This document shows, piece by piece, positions 787 to 13,625 of a stretch of DNA of 64,000 nucleotides. Under the pieces are notes generated by a model. The model worked only from the letters and a program-made list of their open reading frames with translations, was not told the DNA's origin and searched no databases. Numbering within the stretch: position 1 is the first letter of the stretch; each line of letters starts with the position of its first letter. The DNA is taken from positions 115,925 through 179,924 of the forward strand of contig CAWBYW010000016.1 of NCBI GenBank assembly GCA_963792965.1. Direction: 5' to 3'. The position numbers and the translations under genes were made by a program. This DNA is from an uncultured delta proteobacterium (GTDB lineage: Bacteria; Desulfobacterota; Zymogenia; Zymogenales; Zymogenaceae).

Positions 787-2193
787 TCACGTGCGGGCCG
801 TGCGAATCCTCCCGAGGACTTCCGTAAACTCCCGGATGTCCTTCATCTCATCGATTCTCATGGCGGATTCATAGATCTCCCGCCATTGGCCGTCGGAAAG
901 GAAGTTTCTCGTGCAGACGAGGAGCTTTTCCCGGATATCGATCGGGTTCTTGTAGGAGCCCTTCATCGCCTCGGTGAACTTCGAAAACGTCGCACCGTTC
1001 TTCATCACGAAGGTGACCTCGCCCGAATTGATTCCCTCCTGCATCTCCCTGACGTCAAGAGACGGATCGGCGGTGAACTCTATTTTATCGAAGAAGGCGT
1101 GGAGTCTCTTGTCCGCCATCCTCTTCTTCGTAAACTGGGCCTCCGTCAGCTCACCGTCGAGGATCGCCGCCGCCAGCGGATAGACCGAATTGAAGAAGAG
1201 CGGCACCGCGGTCAGGTAATCGGTCTTGACGATCTCGCCTATCAGATCGACCAGCTCGTCGGTAGGCTTGTTGAGGAGCAGCGTCACCGTGGGGCACCGC
1301 ACCTGGACCCGGTCGATCGCGTCGCGGTCGATCCCGTGCTCTCGGATCAGGTCAAGGGCGCTGTCCACCAGGGCGTCCAGCCACCCGCAGCAGGGATAGA
1401 GTTTGGGTGAGTGCGTGTCCGTGCGCCAGTCGGTGCCGAGGTCCTTGACCATCTCCGTCAGGTCGTACCGGTCAAAAATCGCGTTGGAGAAGCCGTCGGG
1501 GTGCTCGATGATCTTCCGAAAGCCGTGGAGCCCGCTCTTGGCCAGCGACGCACCGAGGATCCCCGCGTAGACCGGGGCCCCGGTGATGAACCCCTTGCTC
1601 GGGGAAAACCATCCGGCAAACGACTGGGTCATCGGCGGAAAACACGAGATCCCCACCGCGTCCATTATCTGTTCCTTCGTGAGACGGAAGAGTTTCCCGG
1701 CCACGAAGGCGGCATCGATCTGGTGGTTCGGGCACGAGTTGGTGAAAAGACGGCTCTTGATGTAGGCGTGGCCCGTCCTTCCGGAGATCTCGTTGCCGAC
1801 GATCAGCGCCGTCAACAGCTCACGGCCGGATGCCCCGACCGCCTCCGCCACCGCCAGGGCGCAGGGGACGGTGGACGCGCCGGAGTGCTGGGACCTGAGG
1901 TAATCCTCCCACTCGAGCGTCTGGGCGGCCACCGCGTTGGCCATCCCGGCGTGGCGCATGCTGCTCTTGGTGCCACGGCCGATGAGGGTCGATTCTTCGC
2001 GGTCTCCGAACGACTCGACGCCGGCAAAGAGCGGCGCGAGCTCATCCGTGCGGCTCCCGGCAAGGATCGCCGCGACGATGCCGATCACCTGCTCCTTGGC
2101 GCAGCCGACGGTCTTTTTCGGAATATCGGTAAACGCGAGGCCGGACGCCCATTCGCTCAGGATCTCCGTTACCGCAATGCCTTTCTGTGTCAT
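787..2193 (-). CDS. MmgE/PrpD family protein (2-methylcitrate dehydratase-like)
   Basis: Intact 468-aa ORF whose length and composition match MmgE/PrpD family proteins. Substrate cannot be assigned. Confidence 0.65.
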   Translation of the reverse strand: MTQKGIAVTEILSEWASGLAFTDIPKKTVGCAKEQVIGIVAAILAGSRTDELAPLFAGVESFGDREESTLIGRGTKSSMRHAGMANAVAAQTLEWEDYLRSQHSGASTVPCALAVAEAVGASGRELLTALIVGNEISGRTGHAYIKSRLFTNSCPNHQIDAAFVAGKLFRLTKEQIMDAVGISCFPPMTQSFAGWFSPSKGFITGAPVYAGILGASLAKSGLHGFRKIIEHPDGFSNAIFDRYDLTEMVKDLGTDWRTDTHSPKLYPCCGWLDALVDSALDLIREHGIDRDAIDRVQVRCPTVTLLLNKPTDELVDLIGEIVKTDYLTAVPLFFNSVYPLAAAILDGELTEAQFTKKRMADKRLHAFFDKIEFTADPSLDVREMQEGINSGEVTFVMKNGATFSKFTEAMKGSYKNPIDIREKLLVCTRNFLSDGQWREIYESAMRIDEMKDIREFTEVLGRIRTART

Positions 2194-2666: not shown

Positions 2667-3985
2667 CTATTTCAATCGTTTGACGATCTCAAAGACTTTT
2701 GCCAACGCCTCCCCCTCGTCGAACGTGAGGATCTTCCCCCAGTGATGGACGACCCGCCCCCCACGATCGTGGTCTTGACATCGAGCCCCCGCGCGGAATA
2801 GACGAGGTGGGACTCGTACGAGAAGAGCGGCGCGGCATGGGGACGCGACAGGTCGACGACGATCAGGTCCGCGGCCATGCCCGGCGCAAGGCTCCCCACC
2901 TCCGTTTCCAGCCCGAGGGCCTCGGCGCCAAGGAAGAGCGAGAGCGAGAGGACGGTTTTGGCGTCCATCTGGGCGGGGTCCTTCGAGGCAAGCTTATGCC
3001 CCTTGGCGCAGAAGTCCATCTCGTAGAAGAGGTCCTGGCGGTTGTTGGAGGCCGGCCCGTCGGTGCCGAGCCCCACAGGGATGCCGGCCGCCAACATCGC
3101 CGGCACCGGGGCAAGGCCGTTGCCGAGCTTGGCGTTGCTGCCCGGGCAGTGTACCACGGACGCGCCGTACTCGGCCAGGATATCGATCTCCTCGGGCTCG
3201 ACGTAGACGGCATGCACCGCGATAAAGGTATCGGAAAGAATACCCTCCCGCGCGAGGAGGCGCACGGGTGTCGCCCCGTATTTCTGCGTGACCGTCTTCA
3301 CCTCCGCCTCCGACTCGGCAAGGTGGGTGAAGAGCGGCACTCTGTACTCGTCGCACAGCTCCTTTACCGTGCGGTATGTCCGGGGGGAGGCGGTGTAGGG
3401 GGCGTGAACGAAGAGGGCCGGGGTCACGAGGCCGCCGCCCTTCTTTTTCGTTTCTTCGAGGAATTGCCTGAGGACCGATAGGCGCCCGCCGTCGTCCTTC
3501 CACTGGGGCTGCGGCCCATCGATGACTCCCTGGGCCGAGATCGCCCTTATCCCCGCGGCGCCGAAGGCCTCGGCGGCAGAGGAGGCAAAGAAATAGGCGT
3601 CGGCGCACGTGGTGATGCCCGAGCGCAGCATCTCGGCGGCCGACACGAGGCTCCCCCAGTAGACCATGTCGCGTCCCATGAGTTTTTCTTCGGCGGGTAT
3701 GATCCGATTAAATAGCCAGGTGTCAAACGGGAGGTCATCGGCATAGCCGCGCAGGACCGACATGGCGGCGTGGGTGTGGCCGTTGATGAGCCCCGGCATG
3801 ACGAGGTCGCCCCCGGCATCTAAGGTGCGCTCGGCCTCAAATCCGTGGCCGATCTCGAATTCGTCGCCGACCGCGACAATCACCCCGTCTTTTATGCAGA
3901 CGATGCCGCTCGGAAAGCGGCTCCCCCGCTCATCGAAGGTGAGGACCGGACCACCCTTGACGATGAGGTCGACCTTCTCGGTCAT
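2667..3985 (-). CDS. MtaD-like amidohydrolase (5'-methylthioadenosine/S-adenosylhomocysteine deaminase family), frameshifted near 2770
   Basis: N-terminal metal-binding motif LINGHTHAAMS and amidohydrolase-wide similarity. After ...VKTTIVG the frame turns to junk. The alternate frame gives RVVHHWGKILTFDEGEALAKVFEIVKRLK followed by TAG at 2667-2669. A 1-bp indel in a C-run near 2769-2779 explains the break. Confidence 0.75.
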
Positions 3986-4380
3986 ACGACCACCGACTCG
4001 TCATCGGCGCGCCAGGCCGGGTCAACGATGCAATAGAAGACGAGGTCGGAATTGCCCGTGTTCTCGGTCCACTGCAGCGCCCCGGGGGGGACGTAGACGA
4101 GGCTGCCCGCCGAGACCTCGGCCGCCTCATCATTCACGTGCATGATGCCCCGTCCCTCGGTGACGATGAAGACCTCGGAGGACGATTTCAGCCGGTGGGG
4201 CAGGTTCCGGGAGCCCTTCGGCATGCGCGCGACGGCGATCGAGTAATGCGTCGCGACGGGGTCCTTCATGGGCGACATGAGCTCCTTGATCGGCGTCGTG
4301 TCGGCGGCCGTGATGCCCGGCGTCTTATGCGGTTCAACGATTTTCATTTGTTCTACCCGATTAGAGGATTTTGGTGACAC
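3982..4380 (-). CDS. cupin domain protein
   Basis: 132 aa with cupin_2-like beta-barrel motifs (EVFIVTEGRG...LVYVPPGA). Overlaps the downstream deaminase gene by 4 bp (ATGA). Confidence 0.6.
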   Translation of the reverse strand: MSPKSSNRVEQMKIVEPHKTPGITAADTTPIKELMSPMKDPVATHYSIAVARMPKGSRNLPHRLKSSSEVFIVTEGRGIMHVNDEAAEVSAGSLVYVPPGALQWTENTGNSDLVFYCIVDPAWRADDESVVV

Positions 4381-4426
4381 TCTACTTAATTAAGACTCTA
4401 TAAATTGACGGGGTAGATCTCAATTA

Positions 4427-4453
4427 AAATTAAGCATGGTGTCCCCCTAATTC
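4427..4453. repeat. 27-bp palindromic repeat unit, copy A (aaattaagcatggtgtccccctaattc)
   Basis: Near-identical to copy C at 4945-4971 (23 of 27 positions). The ends of the unit are self-complementary (gaattaag / cttaattc). Confidence 0.6.
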
Positions 4454-4860
4454 TACTTCCTTCTCCCGCACTCAGAACAAACACCTTTATGAACACAAAT
4501 AGTCCCACCACAATCGGGACATGTCCATCTTGATTTTTCGTTTAGTAGAAATTTTGTAATACCCAATTTTTCAATATTCCCGAGATTTTCAATCATGCTC
4601 ATAGTATACTTTGTTCTATATCTTTTGTCCAAATGCTTCAATGTATCGCAGGGAAAATCATTGCATTGAAAACAAAACGTTGCCTTTCCATTCTTGAGGA
4701 CTTCGCAGATTTTGATTTTGCATGTGGTGCGGGTAATCGGCTTGCCAACATCCGAGCCTCTGCATCCACGACATTTGTTACTTTCTCTCAGATATGCTAA
4801 GCAAACACCGCAATTCATCCCACAGGGGGCGATGAGCAAAGCTGCGCCTAATGATGCCAT
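4453..4860 (-). CDS. DUF3795-like cysteine-rich protein
   Basis: 135 aa with N-terminal CGMNCGVCLAY...KCRGCRG and further CxxC motifs typical of DUF3795. Lies in an AT-rich (about 40% GC) island in a 62% GC background. Confidence 0.55.
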   Translation of the reverse strand: MASLGAALLIAPCGMNCGVCLAYLRESNKCRGCRGSDVGKPITRTTCKIKICEVLKNGKATFCFQCNDFPCDTLKHLDKRYRTKYTMSMIENLGNIEKLGITKFLLNEKSRWTCPDCGGTICVHKGVCSECGRRK

Positions 4861-4887
4861 GCTATTACTATATATTATTTCCCAAAA

Positions 4888-4971
4888 GAATTAAGGGGAC
4901 ACAATACTTAATTCACTTTTCTTTGCTTATCCTGAAGGCCCGTTGAATTAAGTATTGTGTCCCCTTAATTC
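4888..4971. repeat. pair of perfect inverted 27-bp repeats (copy B 4888-4914, copy C 4945-4971) forming a long hairpin
   Basis: gaattaaggggacacaatacttaattc and gaattaagtattgtgtccccttaattc are exact reverse complements, separated by 30 bp. Confidence 0.7.
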
Positions 4972-4973
4972 GC

Positions 4974-7162
4974 TTACCCCACCGACTTCCTCACCCTCCC
5001 CGACAGCTCCCGCGCCTTAGCCATGATGTCGGCCGCATCCGCCTTCGTTAGCTTGCCGTCGTGCACCAGCACGTCCCCGTTGACCAGCACGTCCCGCACG
5101 TCGGTGGATTTTGCGGCGTAGACGAGGTGCGAATAGGGGTTGTAGACAGGCGTCAGGTGGGGCTTATTGAAATCGACGATGATGAGGTCGGCCTTCTTGC
5201 CGACGGCGAGCGTCCCCACCAGCTCACCGAGCCCGAGGGCTCGCGCGCCGTTTTTTGTGGCGGTCTGGAGGACGGTCTTTGCCTCCATGTGCGTCGGGTC
5301 CGCATCGTAGACCTTGTGGAGCTTTGCCAGCGTATCCATCTCCCCGAAGAGGTCAAGGTCGTTGTTGCTGGCGCATCCGTCCGTGCCCAGCCCCACGACG
5401 ATCCCCCGCCCAAGGTACTTGTGCACCGGCGCCCATCCCGAGGCGAGCTTCATGTTGCTCTCGGGGTTGGTGACGACGGTAACATTCCTTTCACGCATGA
5501 TCTCCATCTCGGCATCATCCACCCAGACGGCGTGGAGCGCCGTGAATCTCTCGTTGAGGACGCCCAGGTCGTCCAGATACTCAAACGAGCTCTTGCCGTG
5601 CTTCTTCTTCACGTCCTCGATGTTTGCACGGGACTCCGCCACGTGGACGATGCAGCGCACCCCAAACCCGTCCGAAATCTCCTTTGCCCGCACGAAGAGC
5701 TCCGGCGAGCAGGTGTCCAGCGCGTGGGGCTGGATGGAGGGAACGATAAGGGGGTCGCTCTGCCACTTCTTGATGAAGTTTTCCGTATACTCGAATCCCT
5801 TCTCGATGGGCCCGTAGTTCGGGGAGGGAAAGTCATAGAGCACCTCGCCGAGCACCCCCCGCATCCCCATCTCTTTGGCGGCTCTCGCCGCCGAGTCCTC
5901 GAAGAGGTACATGTCACAAAAGGTCGTCACCCCCCCGAGCAGCATCTCCGCGCAGGCGAGCTTCGTCCCCCAGTAGACGAAGTCGTCGTCGAGGTTGGCC
6001 TTCTCGGCCGGAAAGATATAGTCGCATAGCCACCGCTCCAGCGGCAGGTCGTCGGCGATCCCCCGAAAGAGGCTCATGGCCGCATGCGTGTGCCCGTTGA
6101 CCAACCCCGGCATCACGACGCATCCCGTCGCGTCAATCTCGGTTCTTGCCGCCCAGCGACGGGCGGCATCGCTCCGTTTCCCCACGAAAGCGATCGCGTC
6201 GCCTACGACCACGACCGCGCCGTCTTCAATCGGGACCCCGTCCTCCATCGTCAGGACGATCCCGCCCGAAATAACTACGTCCGCGCCGATTCTCTCCGTC
6301 ATTCCTCTTTTGTTTCTCCTATCCGCCGGATTACCGCGGCGATCAGTCTGATGAGGTCCGGACCGGTCCTCTTCTCCCGTGGCGATGATATCGTCGATCA
6401 GGATGGGAGCCATGGCGTCGGGGAGGTTAACGTTGGCCACGAGCGAAAAGCCCAACACCCGCATCCTCACGTGCGCCGCGGTGATCACCTCCATAACCGT
6501 CGACATGCCCAGGGCGTCGGCACCGAGGCCGCGAAACATCCTGGTCTCGGCCGCCGTCTCGAGGCTCGGGCCCAAGACCCCGATATAGACCCCCCGGTTG
6601 ACGTGGATGCCCAGCCTGAGCGCCTCCTCTTCGGCGATCTCGATGAGCTCCCGATCATAGGCCTTCGTCATGTCGGGAAAGCGGGGGCCCAACGTGTCGA
6701 GATTGGGGCCGACGAGCGGGTTACGGCCCGTGAAGTTGATCTGGTCGTGGATAACCATGATCTCCCCCGGCCGAAAGAGCGGATTGAGGCCGCCGGCCGA
6801 ATTGGTGATGATGAGGGTGTTGATCCCAAGGGCGAAGAGGGCCCGGACGGCAAAGGCGATCTCGGGGGCCGTATACCCCTCGTAGAGGTGGAACCGGCCC
6901 TCCATGGCCGCCGTCTCCACCCCGGCGATCCTCCCGATATGCAAAATCCCCGCATGACCCTCCGCGGTCGAGACGGGGAAGTGGGGGATCTCCCCATACG
7001 GGATCGAAACCTCCGTCTCCATGACCGCGGAAGTACCGGAAAGTCCCGTGCCGAGGATCACGGCCACGCGCGGACGGAGGTTTGTCTTGATGAGGATGTG
7101 ATCGGCCGCCTCGTGGATCTCTTTGATCGCTTTGTCTGCATCGCGGGGGGGCTGGACTGTCA
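4974..7162 (-). CDS. PNP-family nucleoside phosphorylase (MTA/MTI phosphorylase-like) fused in frame to an MtaD-like deaminase
   Basis: Residues about 37-300 carry PNP family-1 motifs (ILGTGLSG, GHAGILHIG, GMSTVMEV). Residues about 325-765 are an amidohydrolase with VNGHTHAAMS. The likely start is the ATG at 7162 (MTVQPP...), preceded by GGAGGGAG. An internal ATG at 6301 is preceded by AGGAG. The linker between the two domains is Arg-rich and low in complexity. Confidence 0.7.
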
Positions 7163-7313
7163 TGGTATGACTCCCTCCACTGAGATAGACCGCTGGACCG
7201 GACGGACACAAACGGTCCGTCTGCGGCGCACGGGTGAGTGGCATACGGTCAGCCGGGCCGCATGAGCACACGGCCCATCGCGTCCGCGCGGCGCACCGTG
7301 CCCGAAAGTATCT

Positions 7314-10300
7314 TTACTTTGCGTTCGGCCGTATGGGCTTGGGCGGGATCGGGGTTTTCTTCTCCTCTTTTGGGATCTTTTCGTCGACCGTGGAGAGAAG
7401 CTCGGTGATCTCCGCATCGTCGGGGAGCCCGTTTTTAGCCAGCTTCAGGTACTTCTTTGCCTCGGTATAGTTCTTCATCTGAAAATAGATGAGCCCGAGC
7501 GCTTTTTCCGCCGGCGCGTTTTCGGCCTTGAGGACGAGGGATCGATTGGCCAGCTTCAGCGCCCTATCGAGCTTCTTGTTTTCTTTCGCGTACAGGAGTG
7601 CCGTGTCGGACCAGACCGAGTAGTCGCTCGGGTCAAGCGCGAGCGATTTCTCGTAATATTTGAGGGCCTCCGACACCTTTCCGTTCCTGAGGTAGTAATC
7701 GCCGATGGTACGGAAGGTGGCATAGTCGTTCGGCTTGAGCTTGACCAGCGCAAGGTAGGCCGCCTCCGCCTTTTCGGGGTCGGGTTTGGCCTCATAGGTC
7801 TCGGCAAGCCCGAGCATCGCGGGGTAGTTGTCCGGTTTTGTCGCCAGCGCCGCCGTCAACAGCTCAACCGCTTTGTCATACTGCCCCGTGCGGGAATAGC
7901 ACTGGCCCAACAGATAGTAGACATCGGTGTTGTCGGGGGCCATCTCCCGCGCCTTTTCGAGATACCCGATGGCTTCATCAAACTTCCCGGCGATCCTCAG
8001 CCCGTCGCCAAGGTCGATGTAGGGCCTCGGGTCGTCGGGGTAGCTCTTCATGAGGTTGGTGTTGAATTCACGCAGCTTATCGAGCGCAACGTCGTAATCC
8101 GGCTTTATCGAGAGACAACGCTTGAGGGAGAGCATCGCCTCTTCCGACCATCCCCGCACGGCGAAGATGACGCCGAGGTTGTAGTGGGCCTTGTAGTTTT
8201 CGGGCTGGATGCGCACGACGTTGTTGAAGGCCGAGATCGCCTCGTCATAGGAGCCGAGCTTGACGTAGTTGGTGCCGAGGACGAAATAGAGGTCGGCGTT
8301 GTCCGGCTCGATCTCAAGCGCTTTCCAGATCGTATCGACGGCGAGCTTGTATTGGCCGGTGTTGGAGTAGCACTCGGCGACGTAGAGCATTGCCTGGATG
8401 TTTTTCGGATCCCGTGAGATCACGTCCGCAAAGACCCCGAGCGCCTTCTCGTAGAGTCCCCCGTCGAAATAGGTCTGCCCGAGCAGTATCTGCGCGTCGC
8501 TATAATCCGGCTTGACTTCAAGCGCCTTTCCGAGGGCCTTGGCCGCTTCGTCGTAGTTGGCCAGTTGGTGATAGGCAAGCCCGAGCATGAACAGGCCGTC
8601 GACGTATTCCGGGGAGTAGGAGACCGCCTTCTTGAAATATTCGAGGGCTTCCGGCGTCTTGCCGCCTTCCATCTTCAGAATACCGATCTGATAGTAGGCC
8701 AGGTAGTTATCCGGGGACTGCTCGATCGATTTTTCGTAGTTCAGGGTGGCATTGTCGGTATCTCCGAGCTTCCAGTAGACCTGGCCGAGGCTGTAATAGA
8801 CCAAAAACTGGTTGGGATCGAGCTTGAGCGACTCCTCGTAGGCCGCAATCGACTTGTCGTATTCTTCCCGGTAGTAGTAGACCTTACCGACCCCCTTGTA
8901 GGAGCGGGGGTTGGCCGGATCGATGTCTTGCGCGCGCTCGTAGTAGTCCATGGCCTTGTCGAGCTCACGGTTATCGAGGTAGGTCTCGGCCATGAGGATC
9001 AGCGCATCAAAAAAGCGGGGGTCGATCTTGACTGCCATATCCAAGAGCGCCATGCCGTTGGTCTTTTCTCCCTTTGCGATATAGATATCCGCAAGCGAGT
9101 AGAGGGCCGTCGTGTTCTTCGGGTCGATCTCGACGACCTTCCGGAAGGTCTCGATGGCCGTGTCCTTCTGGCCCAGAAAGGCATAGAGATTGCCGAGGGC
9201 GAGGTAGGCGTCGACATACTTCGGATCCGTGTCGATGGCCTTCTTAAGTATGCGACGATGGCCGATTTCACGTCGCCGGCCTCGACATAGATCCTGGCCC
9301 TGTTATAGTATCCGGGCGCGTATCCCGGTTGTATCTTTATGGCCTTATCGATCGCGGCGATCGCCTTTTTCTTCTCCCCCATGGCAAGGTAGACACGCGA
9401 GAGCTCCACGTAGGCCTCGTAGTAGTCGGGCTTGAGCTTGATGGCCCGCTCCAGCGTGGCGACGGCATCACCGAACCTGCCGAAGGACGCATACGACCTG
9501 CCGATGGCAAGGTACGCCGGGTAGAAATCGGGCTTTATCTTCAACACGCCCTCATAGACCGATATCGCCCGGTCGATATCGCCGATGGCCAGCGCCACTC
9601 TCCCGATGTGGTCGTATCCGTCCACGAAATCGGGCCTGAGCTCCACGGCCTTCAGGTATGCCGCCAGGGCGTCCCGTGATTTCCCCTGGGCCTCCAGCAC
9701 CGCCCCGAGCTCGTCGTATGCCAGGTAGTGGTGGAATCCAGGGCGACGGCCTCGTTGAGGAACTGCTCGGCCATGACGTATTCGCCCTTCTTGAAGTAGG
9801 CGACGCCGAGGCCGTAGTCTATATCGGCATCCTTCGCGTCAAGGGCGAGTGCTCGGGAGAAGACCCCGATGGCGTTATCGGTGTCGCCCGTCAAAAGGTA
9901 GATCGTCCCGAGCTCGGAGAGGACCTTCGGGTTGTCCCCGGCAAGGGCCAGCGCCCGGGTAAGGACTGTCACCGCCTCGGCGTATTCCTTCTGAGCGGAG
10001 AAGACTTCGCCCTTGAGGATATAGATGGAAGGATCGGCGGGGCGCAGCTTCTCGGCCCTCGCGAGAAAGGAGAGCGCACCCTCAAGGTTCCCCGAGGCCA
10101 CCGCGTTTCTTGCCGAGAGGATGAGCGCGTCGAAGTGGTTGGGATCGATGGTCAACAGCGCGTCGAGCGCCGTTTTGGCCCCGGCGAAGTCTCCGAGGTC
10201 ATACGACAGCTTCGCCATGAGGAGGAGCCCCTCCGGGGAATCCTTCGCCGTCTCGGCCGCCTTCTTATACGCGGCGAGGGCTTCTTTCGTCAGGCCCTCG

Positions 10301-10836
10301 GACGCCAGGAGTTTTCCTATCTTGATATATGCCTCGGTATAGTCAGGCTTGATGTCGACGGCCCGATTGTAGGCCTCAAGCGCCCCGTCGCGGTCGCCCG
10401 CGCCCGCCAGCGCATCGCCAAGGTAGTTGTAGGCAATGAACGAATCGCCGACGATATCGACGGCCTTTTTCAGCGGGTCCGTGGCCTCATCAAACCGTTT
10501 GTCCTCGAGGTAGGTCTTGCCGAGGTTGAAAAAAGCCTCGAAGAACTTCGGGTCAATGGTGACGGCCTCCCGGAAGGCCCGGGTAGCATTCTCGTGATCT
10601 CCCATCGCGAGGTAGACGAGTCCGATCTTATTCTCCGGGCGGGGATCACCGGGGGTGAGGCGGTAGGCGGTTTCAAATTCCTTGAGGGCTTCCTGATACT
10701 CGGCGTTGTTCAGGTAAAAATCGCCCTGGCTCATGGCCGAGAGGAACTCGGTATCGTCGGTCTGGCCCACGAGAGGAGGGACTAGGGAAAGAAGAAGCAT
10801 CACACACAAGGCGCACATCCAAACGGTTCGTTTCAT
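7314..10836 (-). pseudogene. giant periplasmic TPR-repeat protein (about 1170 aa), split by two frameshifts (near 9250 and 9740)
   Basis: Three consecutive ORFs (9652-10881, 8999-9700, 7314-9053) are all TPR repeats. The junk tail of each is continued by real TPR sequence in the next frame (...SAIVAY / LKKAIDTDPKY and ...EAVALDS / HHYLAYDELG). Signal peptide MKRTVWMCALCVMLLLSLV. The start ATG at 10836 overlaps the stop of the upstream gene (ATGA). Confidence 0.7.
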
Positions 10837-13625
10837 CTCTGTTCGCTCACAAAATCGCTTAAGAAAATAACGGTAGTCCATCCTATCGGGGAGCCCGACC
10901 CCATACCCTGTGCAAGATCGCGGACGGTCTGGGCATAGCCGTCAAGAAGAGGGGCCTTCCTGGACGCGGTAATCATTCGAGACAGAAAAGGGGATACCTC
11001 GTCCGGGCGCGCCCCCCGGGGGATCAGCAGATAGGGTGCATCCTTCATGAAGGCCAGGTATTCTATCTGGAAAAACTCCCCGGGAGCGGAGTCTTCGTCG
11101 ATGTCCGATACAACGACGAGGGGTGCCTCCTGCTCCCACCACGCCCGGTCGCCCGGATGCGCGAGGAGGAGCACGGTTGGGGCTCCCACGCCCGTCTCTT
11201 TCGTGTCTGGGTCCGGGAGTCGCCTCACGTCCGTAAAGAGGTCTAATAATCCCTTGTCGACAGGGCCGGCGTCTCCGACGACGGTCACGCTATCCGGCAT
11301 CGTCGGGAGGGCCTGAGGGATCATCGACCGGGGAGAAAGACAGGACGTAAGGAATACGGCGTATTCGGCCGCAAGCGGCACGAACGTCCCGTCCCCGGGA
11401 CTATGCCCGAGGGCGTTGAGCGGAAGTGATGAAAGACGAGGCCCGGGAGATATCCCGAGCGTGGTGACGCCGTCGAGCTCCCCGATCAGAGGGGCAATCA
11501 GTATTGAGTAGAGGTGGTCCGATGCCGCGGCAAATGGGGGAAGCGCGGCCGCCGTCGACCCCTCGGGGGCGGGAGCGGCGACGGGGGGTGTGGAGATTTC
11601 CTTCTTTAGGTCCCGCACAAGCCCCGCGGCTTCCTCCTGTGTTGTCCCGAGTTTTACGACGGATGTCCCCCGTGATGTGACCACGAATGCAAATGCGGCC
11701 TCCCCGTCAAAGTAGTAGTGGACGAAGGCCGCGCCGTTCGGCACGATCCGCGCAAGGTCGCCCGCGTCGGGCGGCCCGATGCCCATGAAGGCGGCAAGCC
11801 GAGGGGACCGCCGCGCGATCGAGGACACGGCGTCGGAAAGCGCCGCGTTTGCCTCATCGCGGCGTCGGATGATGTCCGTGCGCGAGGATTCGGCAAGCTT
11901 GGTGAAGTCACCCGACAAAAAGACCCCTTGGGCCGCGATCGCGCGCATCGCCGCGTCCCGAAAAAGGCCCACGAGCTCCGCGTCTGTTTTCTTCAGGACG
12001 GGTGGAGACTGAAAGATCCCTCGCGCCACCCACGATCCCTCGGACGAAATGAGGGCCTCAAGCCCCTCCCTCTCTTCCCCGAGCTCCGCACAGAGGCCCA
12101 GGAGCTTATTAAGGGCTCCCGCACGCTCCTCTGTTCCGAAGGAAAGGAGCGCTGCTTCCGGCACATCCGTCCTGATGTCCTCCGAGGTTCGGACGCAAGA
12201 GGCCAGCGCGTCGAAGGCCTTCTCTTTTTGACCGAGGGCGATCCTCACTTCGGCCTCGGCTAAAAGCGCCGCGGCGCGCGTGAGCGGGACATCCTCGGAA
12301 AACGCGAGCGTATGGGCCGAAAGGGCGGCCGCCTCGGCCCCCTTGAGATCGCCCATGGCGATGAGAACCCGCGCCGTCTCGCAGTAGACCGCCGTCTCGC
12401 CGAGGGTCCAGCCGAGATCCTTTGCCACCATAAGGGCGTCCTTCAGGAACAGCGAGGCCGCCTTTGAATCGCCGGCCTTGCGGTAGGCCGTCGAGAGCCC
12501 TATGAGGGCGGTTTCTCTGACCACTTCGTCCTCGATTCTTTCCCCGAGGGTCTCGGCGACCTTGTAGGCCGCTATGGCACCGGGGAAGTCCCCCTCGCCG
12601 GCGAGGATCCGGCCGAGCGTCAGATAAGCACGGCCCAGCCGCCCGGCATCGGCCAGTCTCTCAAAGATCGTGATCGCCTCTCTGATCTTCGCCTCTCCCT
12701 GTTTGTTCTCTTGCTGGGCGGCGTCAATCTCGGCGCCCAGCATGAGGACATCGCCGACGTCAGGCGCCGGCCCCGATGCCCCCACCTCTTTGAGAGTCTC
12801 ATCGGCCTGGCGCTTTGCGGCCTCTCGATCACCCGTGAGGAAGAGAAGCCGCGCCTGCGCAAGCCCGGCTTCGGCGACGTACTCGGGCCTGCCGAGGGTG
12901 CGTGATAGCTCTTGGGCCGCGGCCAGGTCGTCCCGCGCGCCTGCCGCGTCGCCAAGGGATATCCGTGCCCTCGCCAGCCCCATCAGGCACTGATAGATCC
13001 CTTCATCGTTTTCCGCCGTCCGAAAGATATTCTCCGCGGAGAGGTACGACTCGATGCCCCGAACGCGATCCAGGAGGATGTCGGAGGCGACCTCCGCCTG
13101 GATGAAGATCGCCTGGGCCTTGGAGACGAGGATCTCCTTTTCCGGGGCGGAGAGCTTGGCCGGCGTGAGGGGTTTTGTCTTGAGGTCGGCGATATTATTG
13201 AGGTAGGCCGAAAGGGTGGCGGCATCTATCGTGACCCTGGCCGTCACCAATACCATATCGGAGGTAGGGAACGGGGTGGAAGAGACGACCTCGGTTTTCT
13301 TGATATATTTCTTGTAGTCGGGGATGACCAGGGCGTCCAGCGCGTCCTGGAGGCGGAAGAATTCATCTTCGCCGAGGGTCTGGAAGATAGACGTGACAAG
13401 CGCCCTTTTTTCGGCGTCATCGACGGCGGTCGGAAGCGGCGGCTCCGCATCCGAAGGTGTCTTCTGAGCGGGCGCGCCCAGGCCGAGGGAAAAAATGGTG
13501 ACCCCGTCTTCGCCTCCGTTGCCGGCGCCGAAGAGCGGATGCGCGCCGAATGAGACGAATAGAAGGATAAGGAGCACGACTATGCGGTACGTAGTATGGA
13601 TAATAGCCCGAGAAAAAAAGGTCAT
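10833..13625 (-). CDS. large TPR-repeat protein with C-terminal CHAT-like domain and N-terminal membrane anchor
   Basis: TPR-like helical repeats in the middle. The C-terminal region (LYSILIAPLIGEL...LSSLPLNAL) resembles a CHAT domain, but the expected catalytic Cys context reads LVVVSD, so it may be inactive. The probable start is the ATG at 13625, preceded by GAGGAT. Confidence 0.5.
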   Translation of the reverse strand: MTFFSRAIIHTTYRIVVLLILLFVSFGAHPLFGAGNGGEDGVTIFSLGLGAPAQKTPSDAEPPLPTAVDDAEKRALVTSIFQTLGEDEFFRLQDALDALVIPDYKKYIKKTEVVSSTPFPTSDMVLVTARVTIDAATLSAYLNNIADLKTKPLTPAKLSAPEKEILVSKAQAIFIQAEVASDILLDRVRGIESYLSAENIFRTAENDEGIYQCLMGLARARISLGDAAGARDDLAAAQELSRTLGRPEYVAEAGLAQARLLFLTGDREAAKRQADETLKEVGASGPAPDVGDVLMLGAEIDAAQQENKQGEAKIREAITIFERLADAGRLGRAYLTLGRILAGEGDFPGAIAAYKVAETLGERIEDEVVRETALIGLSTAYRKAGDSKAASLFLKDALMVAKDLGWTLGETAVYCETARVLIAMGDLKGAEAAALSAHTLAFSEDVPLTRAAALLAEAEVRIALGQKEKAFDALASCVRTSEDIRTDVPEAALLSFGTEERAGALNKLLGLCAELGEEREGLEALISSEGSWVARGIFQSPPVLKKTDAELVGLFRDAAMRAIAAQGVFLSGDFTKLAESSRTDIIRRRDEANAALSDAVSSIARRSPRLAAFMGIGPPDAGDLARIVPNGAAFVHYYFDGEAAFAFVVTSRGTSVVKLGTTQEEAAGLVRDLKKEISTPPVAAPAPEGSTAAALPPFAAASDHLYSILIAPLIGELDGVTTLGISPGPRLSSLPLNALGHSPGDGTFVPLAAEYAVFLTSCLSPRSMIPQALPTMPDSVTVVGDAGPVDKGLLDLFTDVRRLPDPDTKETGVGAPTVLLLAHPGDRAWWEQEAPLVVVSDIDEDSAPGEFFQIEYLAFMKDAPYLLIPRGARPDEVSPFLSRMITASRKAPLLDGYAQTVRDLAQGMGSGSPIGWTTVIFLSDFVSEQR

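Follow-up and report, generated by a model that had tools for sequence, protein, structure and literature searches.

What reads as one long phosphorylase-deaminase gene in this 64,000-nucleotide stretch of DNA (the window) is, with a probability of about 0.9, a locus of two separate overlapping genes that have been merged on paper by one surplus base. The two genes would be a PunA-type trimeric purine nucleoside phosphorylase (PNP; 7163-6299, 287 aa) and an MtaD/DadD-like deaminase (6302-4974, 442 aa), both belonging to one operon. A single surplus base at about 6367-6382 would shift the last ~25 PNP codons out of frame and hide the PNP stop, so that reading continues into the deaminase frame. 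What results would be a pseudo-fusion of 765 codons whose Arg-rich "linker" is read out of frame. We find the frame break itself, the hidden C-terminus with its stop, and separate genes in all relatives. The features of the locus are the following:

7164 to 7271, minus strand: upstream 36 codons of the mechanically called open reading frame (ORF), with no counterpart in any ortholog; probably a non-coding 5' leader
6299 to 7163, minus strand: punA-like purine nucleoside phosphorylase gene, 287 aa after removal of one surplus base; frame broken near 6367-6382 as assembled
6367 to 6382, minus strand: interval of the surplus base (the frameshift site); a DNA alignment puts the base at 6367, within GAGGACCGG
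6299 to 6302, minus strand: ATGA overlap of the PNP stop (TGA 6301-6299, +1 frame) and the deaminase start (ATG 6302-6300), visible in the sequence itself
4974 to 6302, minus strand: MtaD/DadD-like amidohydrolase (deaminase 1), 442 aa, intact; collinear in one frame with 442-aa orthologs at 79-82% identity
3982 to 4347, minus strand: cupin gene, 121 aa, Pfam Cupin_2; 85% identical to the ortholog in locus L001, start at 4347
2667 to 3985, minus strand: second MtaD-like amidohydrolase gene, encoding about 439 aa, with a frame break at a G6 run near 2753-2765

As assembled, the minus strand has an open frame that begins with GTG at 7271 and closes with a stop at 4974, and the single frame of 765 codons described by the earlier note is confirmed directly from the sequence of that strand. 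In Pfam, residues 68-299 match PNP_UDP_1 (E 3e-43) and residues 385-734 match Amidohydro_1 (E 6.5e-70), the latter as a complete domain (profile positions 1-344 of 345). Chance cannot account for an open frame of this length in which two such domains are matched. The two domains that had been seen in this frame differ in their state, however: the deaminase is complete, whereas the PNP is incomplete and its C-terminal helix sits in the +1 frame. At the 5' end, residue 1 of the orthologs corresponds to ATG 7163, and a Shine-Dalgarno-like motif (GGAGGGAG) stands 5' of this codon.

In the frame of the ORF (frame 0), the PNP match ends at position 258 of 274 in the NCBIfam model NF006054, and at position 216 of 249 in TIGR01700. 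Three-frame translation of the junction reveals that the last ~25 PNP residues, lost from the ORF frame, are intact in the +1 frame, where the protein ends with TGPDLIRLIAAVIRRIGETKEE followed by a stop. This +1-frame tail is an amphipathic helix of the type that ends trimeric PNPs, and the TGA that closes it overlaps the deaminase ATG. In a MAFFT DNA alignment of the junction from the window, L001 and L002, both orthologs have one 1-base gap, meaning that the window carries exactly one additional base, and the four bases of the ATGA are invariant in all three. Any single-base deletion within ~6367-6382 yields a 287-aa PNP with an ortholog-like C-terminus. The corrected protein matches NF006054 over positions 5-273 of 274 with 334.6 bits (cutoff 218), a gain of ~12 bits over the 322.8 bits of frame 0, and TIGR01700 over positions 2-248 of 249.

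When aligned with 13 homologs, the corrected tail matches residue for residue (orthologs read ...IIATVGK-TGxxLIxLIAAV...), while the frame-0 tail, DRSGPHQTDRRGNPADRRNKRG, has no match in the same alignment. Because the one tail aligns with the homologs and the other does not, we read the Arg-rich "linker" as the conserved helix translated out of frame. The 30-aa junction is as Arg-rich as the earlier note had said, and its caveat, that a frameshift at the PNP 3' end was plausible in an error-prone assembly, is strongly supported by the one surplus base relative to two orthologs. The deaminase also has its own ATG with an AGGAG (6320-6316) 13 nt 5' of it, as had been noted, although the first base of this ATG is 6302 rather than 6301.

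The two genes are separate wherever we find them in related genomes. PF01048 is the one domain in each of the top 120 homologs of the corrected PNP (51-72% identity), which are 206-315 aa long and in many cases exactly 287 aa; the closest are 286-291 aa. In L001, L002, L003 and L004, a 287-aa PNP and a 442-aa amidohydrolase are called separately with a 4-nt overlap (the PNP being the same in L003 and L004), and in a more distant Syntrophobacterales locus, L005, the two genes lie 14 nt apart. We assembled a set of 85 loci with PNP homologs of 45-71% identity, comprising L001-L005 and 80 loci from a genome-contig scan. In 52 of the 85, the next gene downstream is MtaD-like and lies on the same strand as the PNP gene. 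None of these 52 pairs is fused in a stop-free shared frame, and 13 pairs overlap by 4 nt, those of L001-L004 and L008 among them. The earlier note had named a stop codon or frame change between the domains, seen consistently in orthologs, as grounds for refuting a fusion; with all 52 pairs separate, this is the result obtained. ATGA stop/start overlaps usually bring translational coupling, and this conserved PNP-deaminase gene pair is probably translationally coupled. The association of the two genes at the operon level is real, conserved and ordinary in kind.

The idea that had drawn attention to the locus was an evolved bifunctional PNP-MtaD fusion that channels methylthioinosine. In its favor, the 765-codon frame is uninterrupted, a known pathway uses the two activities one after the other (PMC6302742), and rare predicted two-domain proteins of a similar general kind do occur. 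These came from an exhaustive phmmer search of the 765-aa ORF against 1.84 billion cluster representatives, whose top matches are single-domain deaminases of about 440 aa. Both domains are present in three of the best 150 matches (P0131, P0232 and P0264), whose identity to the window ORF is 36-38%; among the 1.84 billion representatives, the search found no two-domain protein closely related to the ORF. In P0131 (731 aa), the deaminase comes first and the PunA-like domain second, the latter being divergent (GSWLL instead of GTGLS); this protein is known from an identical gene in two NCBI MAG assemblies plus a 98.8% variant. P0232 (701 aa; three near-identical members) has a complete MTAP-type domain (profile positions 1-238 of 240) with the deaminase starting at residue 250, and P0264 is a eukaryotic gene model with an MTAP-type domain followed by a deaminase. 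The loci L006 (1974-4169) and L007 (1952-4147) belong with these proteins. Each of P0131, P0232 and P0264 recurs in one to three sequences, and may be either a true fusion or, like the window ORF, an artefact of gene calling.

Like the window ORF, these proteins combine the two Pfam domains in a single chain, but they are distant from it, and differ in having either the reverse domain order (P0131) or an MTAP-type instead of a PunA-type N-terminal domain (P0232 and P0264). As predicted two-domain proteins, they indicate that the idea of a fusion is not absurd, and have no bearing on the window locus. A described fusion of MTAP or PNP with a deaminase was not found in the literature, within the searchable texts; the only fusions mentioned in PMC6302742 are MtnAK and MtnBD. 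At the window locus itself, the PNP is incomplete in the ORF frame, its real C-terminus and stop are in the +1 frame, and the supposed linker is a conserved helix read out of frame. Together with the absence of fusion in all 52 related pairs and the one additional base in the window relative to L001 and L002, this overturns the proposal of a bifunctional enzyme, to which we assign a negligible probability.

If the genes are two, the surplus base requires an explanation, and we infer that it most probably arose as an indel in sequencing or assembly. Using ortholog proteins as rulers, we find at least three further frame breaks within 8 kb. A TPR gene (window 7314-10881, minus strand) is present as three overlapping ORFs of 409, 233 and 579 aa that correspond to one 1167-aa gene in L001-L004; two frameshifts split it, one near 9735 and one near 9230, and the displaced frames still match the ortholog. 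The second amidohydrolase is broken as well. One frame accounts for aa 1-410 of the ortholog; the tail, GGRVVHHWGKILTFDEGEALAKVFEIVKRLK followed by a stop, corresponds to the end of the ortholog but is read in another frame. This break falls at about 2753-2765, inside GTGGGGGGCGGG, which contains the G6 run, and the true stop is at 2667. At every frame break checked, the displaced frame still encodes ortholog-like sequence, and the indel rate in the checked region is roughly one per 2 kb.

Alternatively, the additional base could be a real recent mutation, in which case the strain would have either a chimeric protein, in which an Arg-rich segment read out of frame links a PNP without its C-terminal helix to the deaminase, or a PNP pseudogene with the deaminase started from the internal ATG. 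The break in the PNP lies in GAGGACCGG, a site with no long homopolymer, unlike the break in the second amidohydrolase, and exact look-ups gave no second assembly of the strain with which the base could be compared. Specifically, none of the exact-protein look-ups, which covered the deaminase (442 aa), the cupin (121 aa) and the fused products of 765 and 729 aa, had a match in the collections, nor did an exact 38-mer scan have any in metagenome contigs. These two points leave some room for a mutation. Any such mutation would have to be very recent, however, because the sequence past the shift is still fully ortholog-like, and the three similar breaks within 8 kb in conserved genes, including the one in the G6 run, point to a technical error rate. 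For a set of four recent breaks in conserved genes, of which one falls in a homopolymer, a technical indel rate is a far better fit than four simultaneous pseudogenes. We regard a real mutation as unlikely, and a real frameshift from which the strain makes a chimeric protein as somewhat less likely still.

Programmed +1 ribosomal frameshifting near 6370 would also reconcile the sequence with a full-length PNP: it would be needed to make that protein, and the fused product would be the alternative. Indeed, the full PNP can be read in the given sequence only by a change of frame. In the orthologs, however, the extra base is absent and one frame suffices for the whole PNP; a recoding site is therefore not conserved, and unrelated neighboring genes carry similar breaks. 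We reject this candidate on the grounds that the orthologs have no extra base, and consider it hardly credible.

Two overlapping genes joined by a technical indel are a familiar pattern. Artefactual "Rosetta-stone" fusions in draft and long-read assemblies likewise arise where two genes overlap and the upstream one has an indel of one base close to its 3' end, with the stop lost, the frames joined and other conserved genes nearby frame-broken. We see no notable difference between these and the present locus, which belongs to the same category. Were the fusion accepted as it stands, databases would list a new bifunctional enzyme and a "Rosetta-stone" link. The proper annotation is two genes, or else a frameshifted PNP and an intact deaminase. 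Given roughly one indel per 2 kb, other odd long or split ORFs in the window merit equal suspicion.

The phosphorylase is of the PunA type. Once its frame is corrected, it gives full-length matches above the cutoffs to models of PunA/PNPH-type trimeric PNPs (NF006054 and TIGR01697), the type of human PNP and Bacillus subtilis PunA. The match to TIGR01697 covers positions 1-246 of 247 (273.5 bits; cutoff 197.1), whereas the score against TIGR01700, the equivalog model for inosine/guanosine-specific PNP I, is below its cutoff (279.4 bits against 293.35). The closest solved structures are 4m1e (E 5e-81), 6tk9 and 4lna, and trimeric PunA-type structures score 218-275 bits compared with ~46-47 bits for MTAP. 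No MTAP/MTIP model (TIGR01694, NF006599) matches the corrected PNP at E<=1e-20. Of the earlier assignment to a family-1 purine nucleoside/MTA(MTI) phosphorylase, membership of the MTAP/MTIP family is rejected, with no such model at that threshold and MTAP structures at ~47 bits.

Several positions of human PNP, with numbering verified against PDB 1ULA, are kept: His86, Tyr88, Glu201, Met219 and Asn243 are conserved in the window PNP. Glu201 and Asn243 specify 6-oxopurines in human PNP. The equivalent of Glu201 is present in 85 of the 85 clade members (L001-L005 and L008-L087), and that of Asn243 in 81 of the 85. Two positions depart from the human enzyme. That of Phe200 is Leu or Met in the clade, and that of His257, which contacts the 5'-OH in human PNP structures, is Ile256 in the window PNP. 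The His257 position is I, L, V, M, F or Y in every one of the 85 members, and is hydrophobic whether or not a deaminase is adjacent. Most of the clade has an MtaD-like deaminase as the next gene downstream, another feature by which it differs from the PunA/PNPH type. The loss of the His that binds the 5'-OH hints at 5'-modified nucleosides as substrates, and the clade may be a PunA subfamily specialized for 5'-modified inosine analogues.

The gene at 4974-6302 is predicted to encode an MtaD/DadD-type nucleoside deaminase of the amidohydrolase superfamily (cog0402 group). Its translation contains GHTHAAMS, an HxH metal motif, together with the Amidohydro_1 fold. The closest solved relatives are 4f0r, annotated as a 5-methylthioadenosine/S-adenosylhomocysteine deaminase (E 1.5e-86), and 4dzh, 4dyk and 4gbd (E 1e-85 to 1e-89); Tm0936 (1p1m) matches at E 2e-54. 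The protein falls below the NCBIfam equivalog cutoffs for both MtaD (NF012037, 241.5 against 779) and DadD (NF005557, 376.3 against 522), and its best NCBIfam model, NF004701, scores 461.8 against a cutoff of 609.

From their sequences, we infer that the gene pair fits a deaminase-first salvage of adenine nucleosides. The deaminase would turn adenine nucleosides (MTA, 5'-deoxyadenosine, and possibly SAH or adenosine) into their hypoxanthine forms, and the PNP would then cleave these to hypoxanthine and (5-substituted) ribose-1-phosphate. It is the retention of the Asn243 and Glu201 equivalents that leads us to predict cleavage of 6-oxopurine products by the PNP. In Pseudomonas aeruginosa, such a deaminase-first route converts MTA to MTI, and MTI to hypoxanthine and MTR-1-P (PMC6302742). 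The enzymes are the MTA deaminase PA3170 and the MTI phosphorylase PA3004 (Guan et al. 2011, 2012, cited by PMC6302742). Methanocaldococcus jannaschii follows the same salvage logic with DadD and MtiP (PMC6302742). An alternative role of such deaminases, described in PMC10978960, is SAH deamination feeding an S-inosylhomocysteine route.

The window pair shares the pathway logic of these two organisms, in that an MtaD-like amidohydrolase is likewise combined with a phosphorylase predicted to prefer 6-oxopurine nucleosides. It differs from P. aeruginosa in that the phosphorylase is of the PunA rather than the MTAP/MTIP family, and in that the genes are adjacent and stop/start-overlapped, with activities that are predicted. 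The functional link between deaminase and phosphorylase that the earlier note proposed is plausible at the level of the operon, the pair being present in 52 of the 85 loci, and falls away at the level of a single protein. This is a modest positive outcome: a widely conserved punA-like/mtaD-like pair supports the suspected functional association, at the operon level rather than the protein level. A more specific and decidedly tentative proposal is that the pair might be a dedicated deaminase-first module of Thermodesulfobacteriota and their relatives. Here, an MtaD-like deaminase would be translationally coupled to a phosphorylase of the PunA family, not the MTAP family, whose 5'-OH-binding His is replaced by Ile, Leu or Val. 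This phosphorylase would act as a methylthioinosine/5'-deoxyinosine phosphorylase, and would be a non-orthologous replacement of MtiP.

The genes downstream of the pair are also partly shared with relatives. The ORF list and Pfam bear out the earlier observation that a second MtaD-like gene (2667-3985) and a cupin gene are adjacent. The cupin stop and the start of the second amidohydrolase overlap as ATGA, and the second amidohydrolase is 44% identical to the first. This cupin and second-amidohydrolase pair is also kept in L001, L003 and L004.

Between deaminase 1 and the cupin gene lies a low-GC island (4381-4973; GC 0.39, compared with about 0.62 in the flanks), within which there is a Cys-rich DUF3795 gene (4453-4860, minus strand). 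The same slot is empty in L001, and is occupied by an IS200-type Y1 transposase and a TPR gene in L003 and L004, which suggests that it is a variable insertion hotspot. Finally, a 72-aa ORF in L001 (10598-10816) is 73% identical to the C-terminal part (window 805-1005, minus strand) of a 468-aa MmgE/PrpD-family ORF (787-2193). At the MmgE/PrpD position, either the window or L001 thus has a gene remnant or a gene that was called differently.
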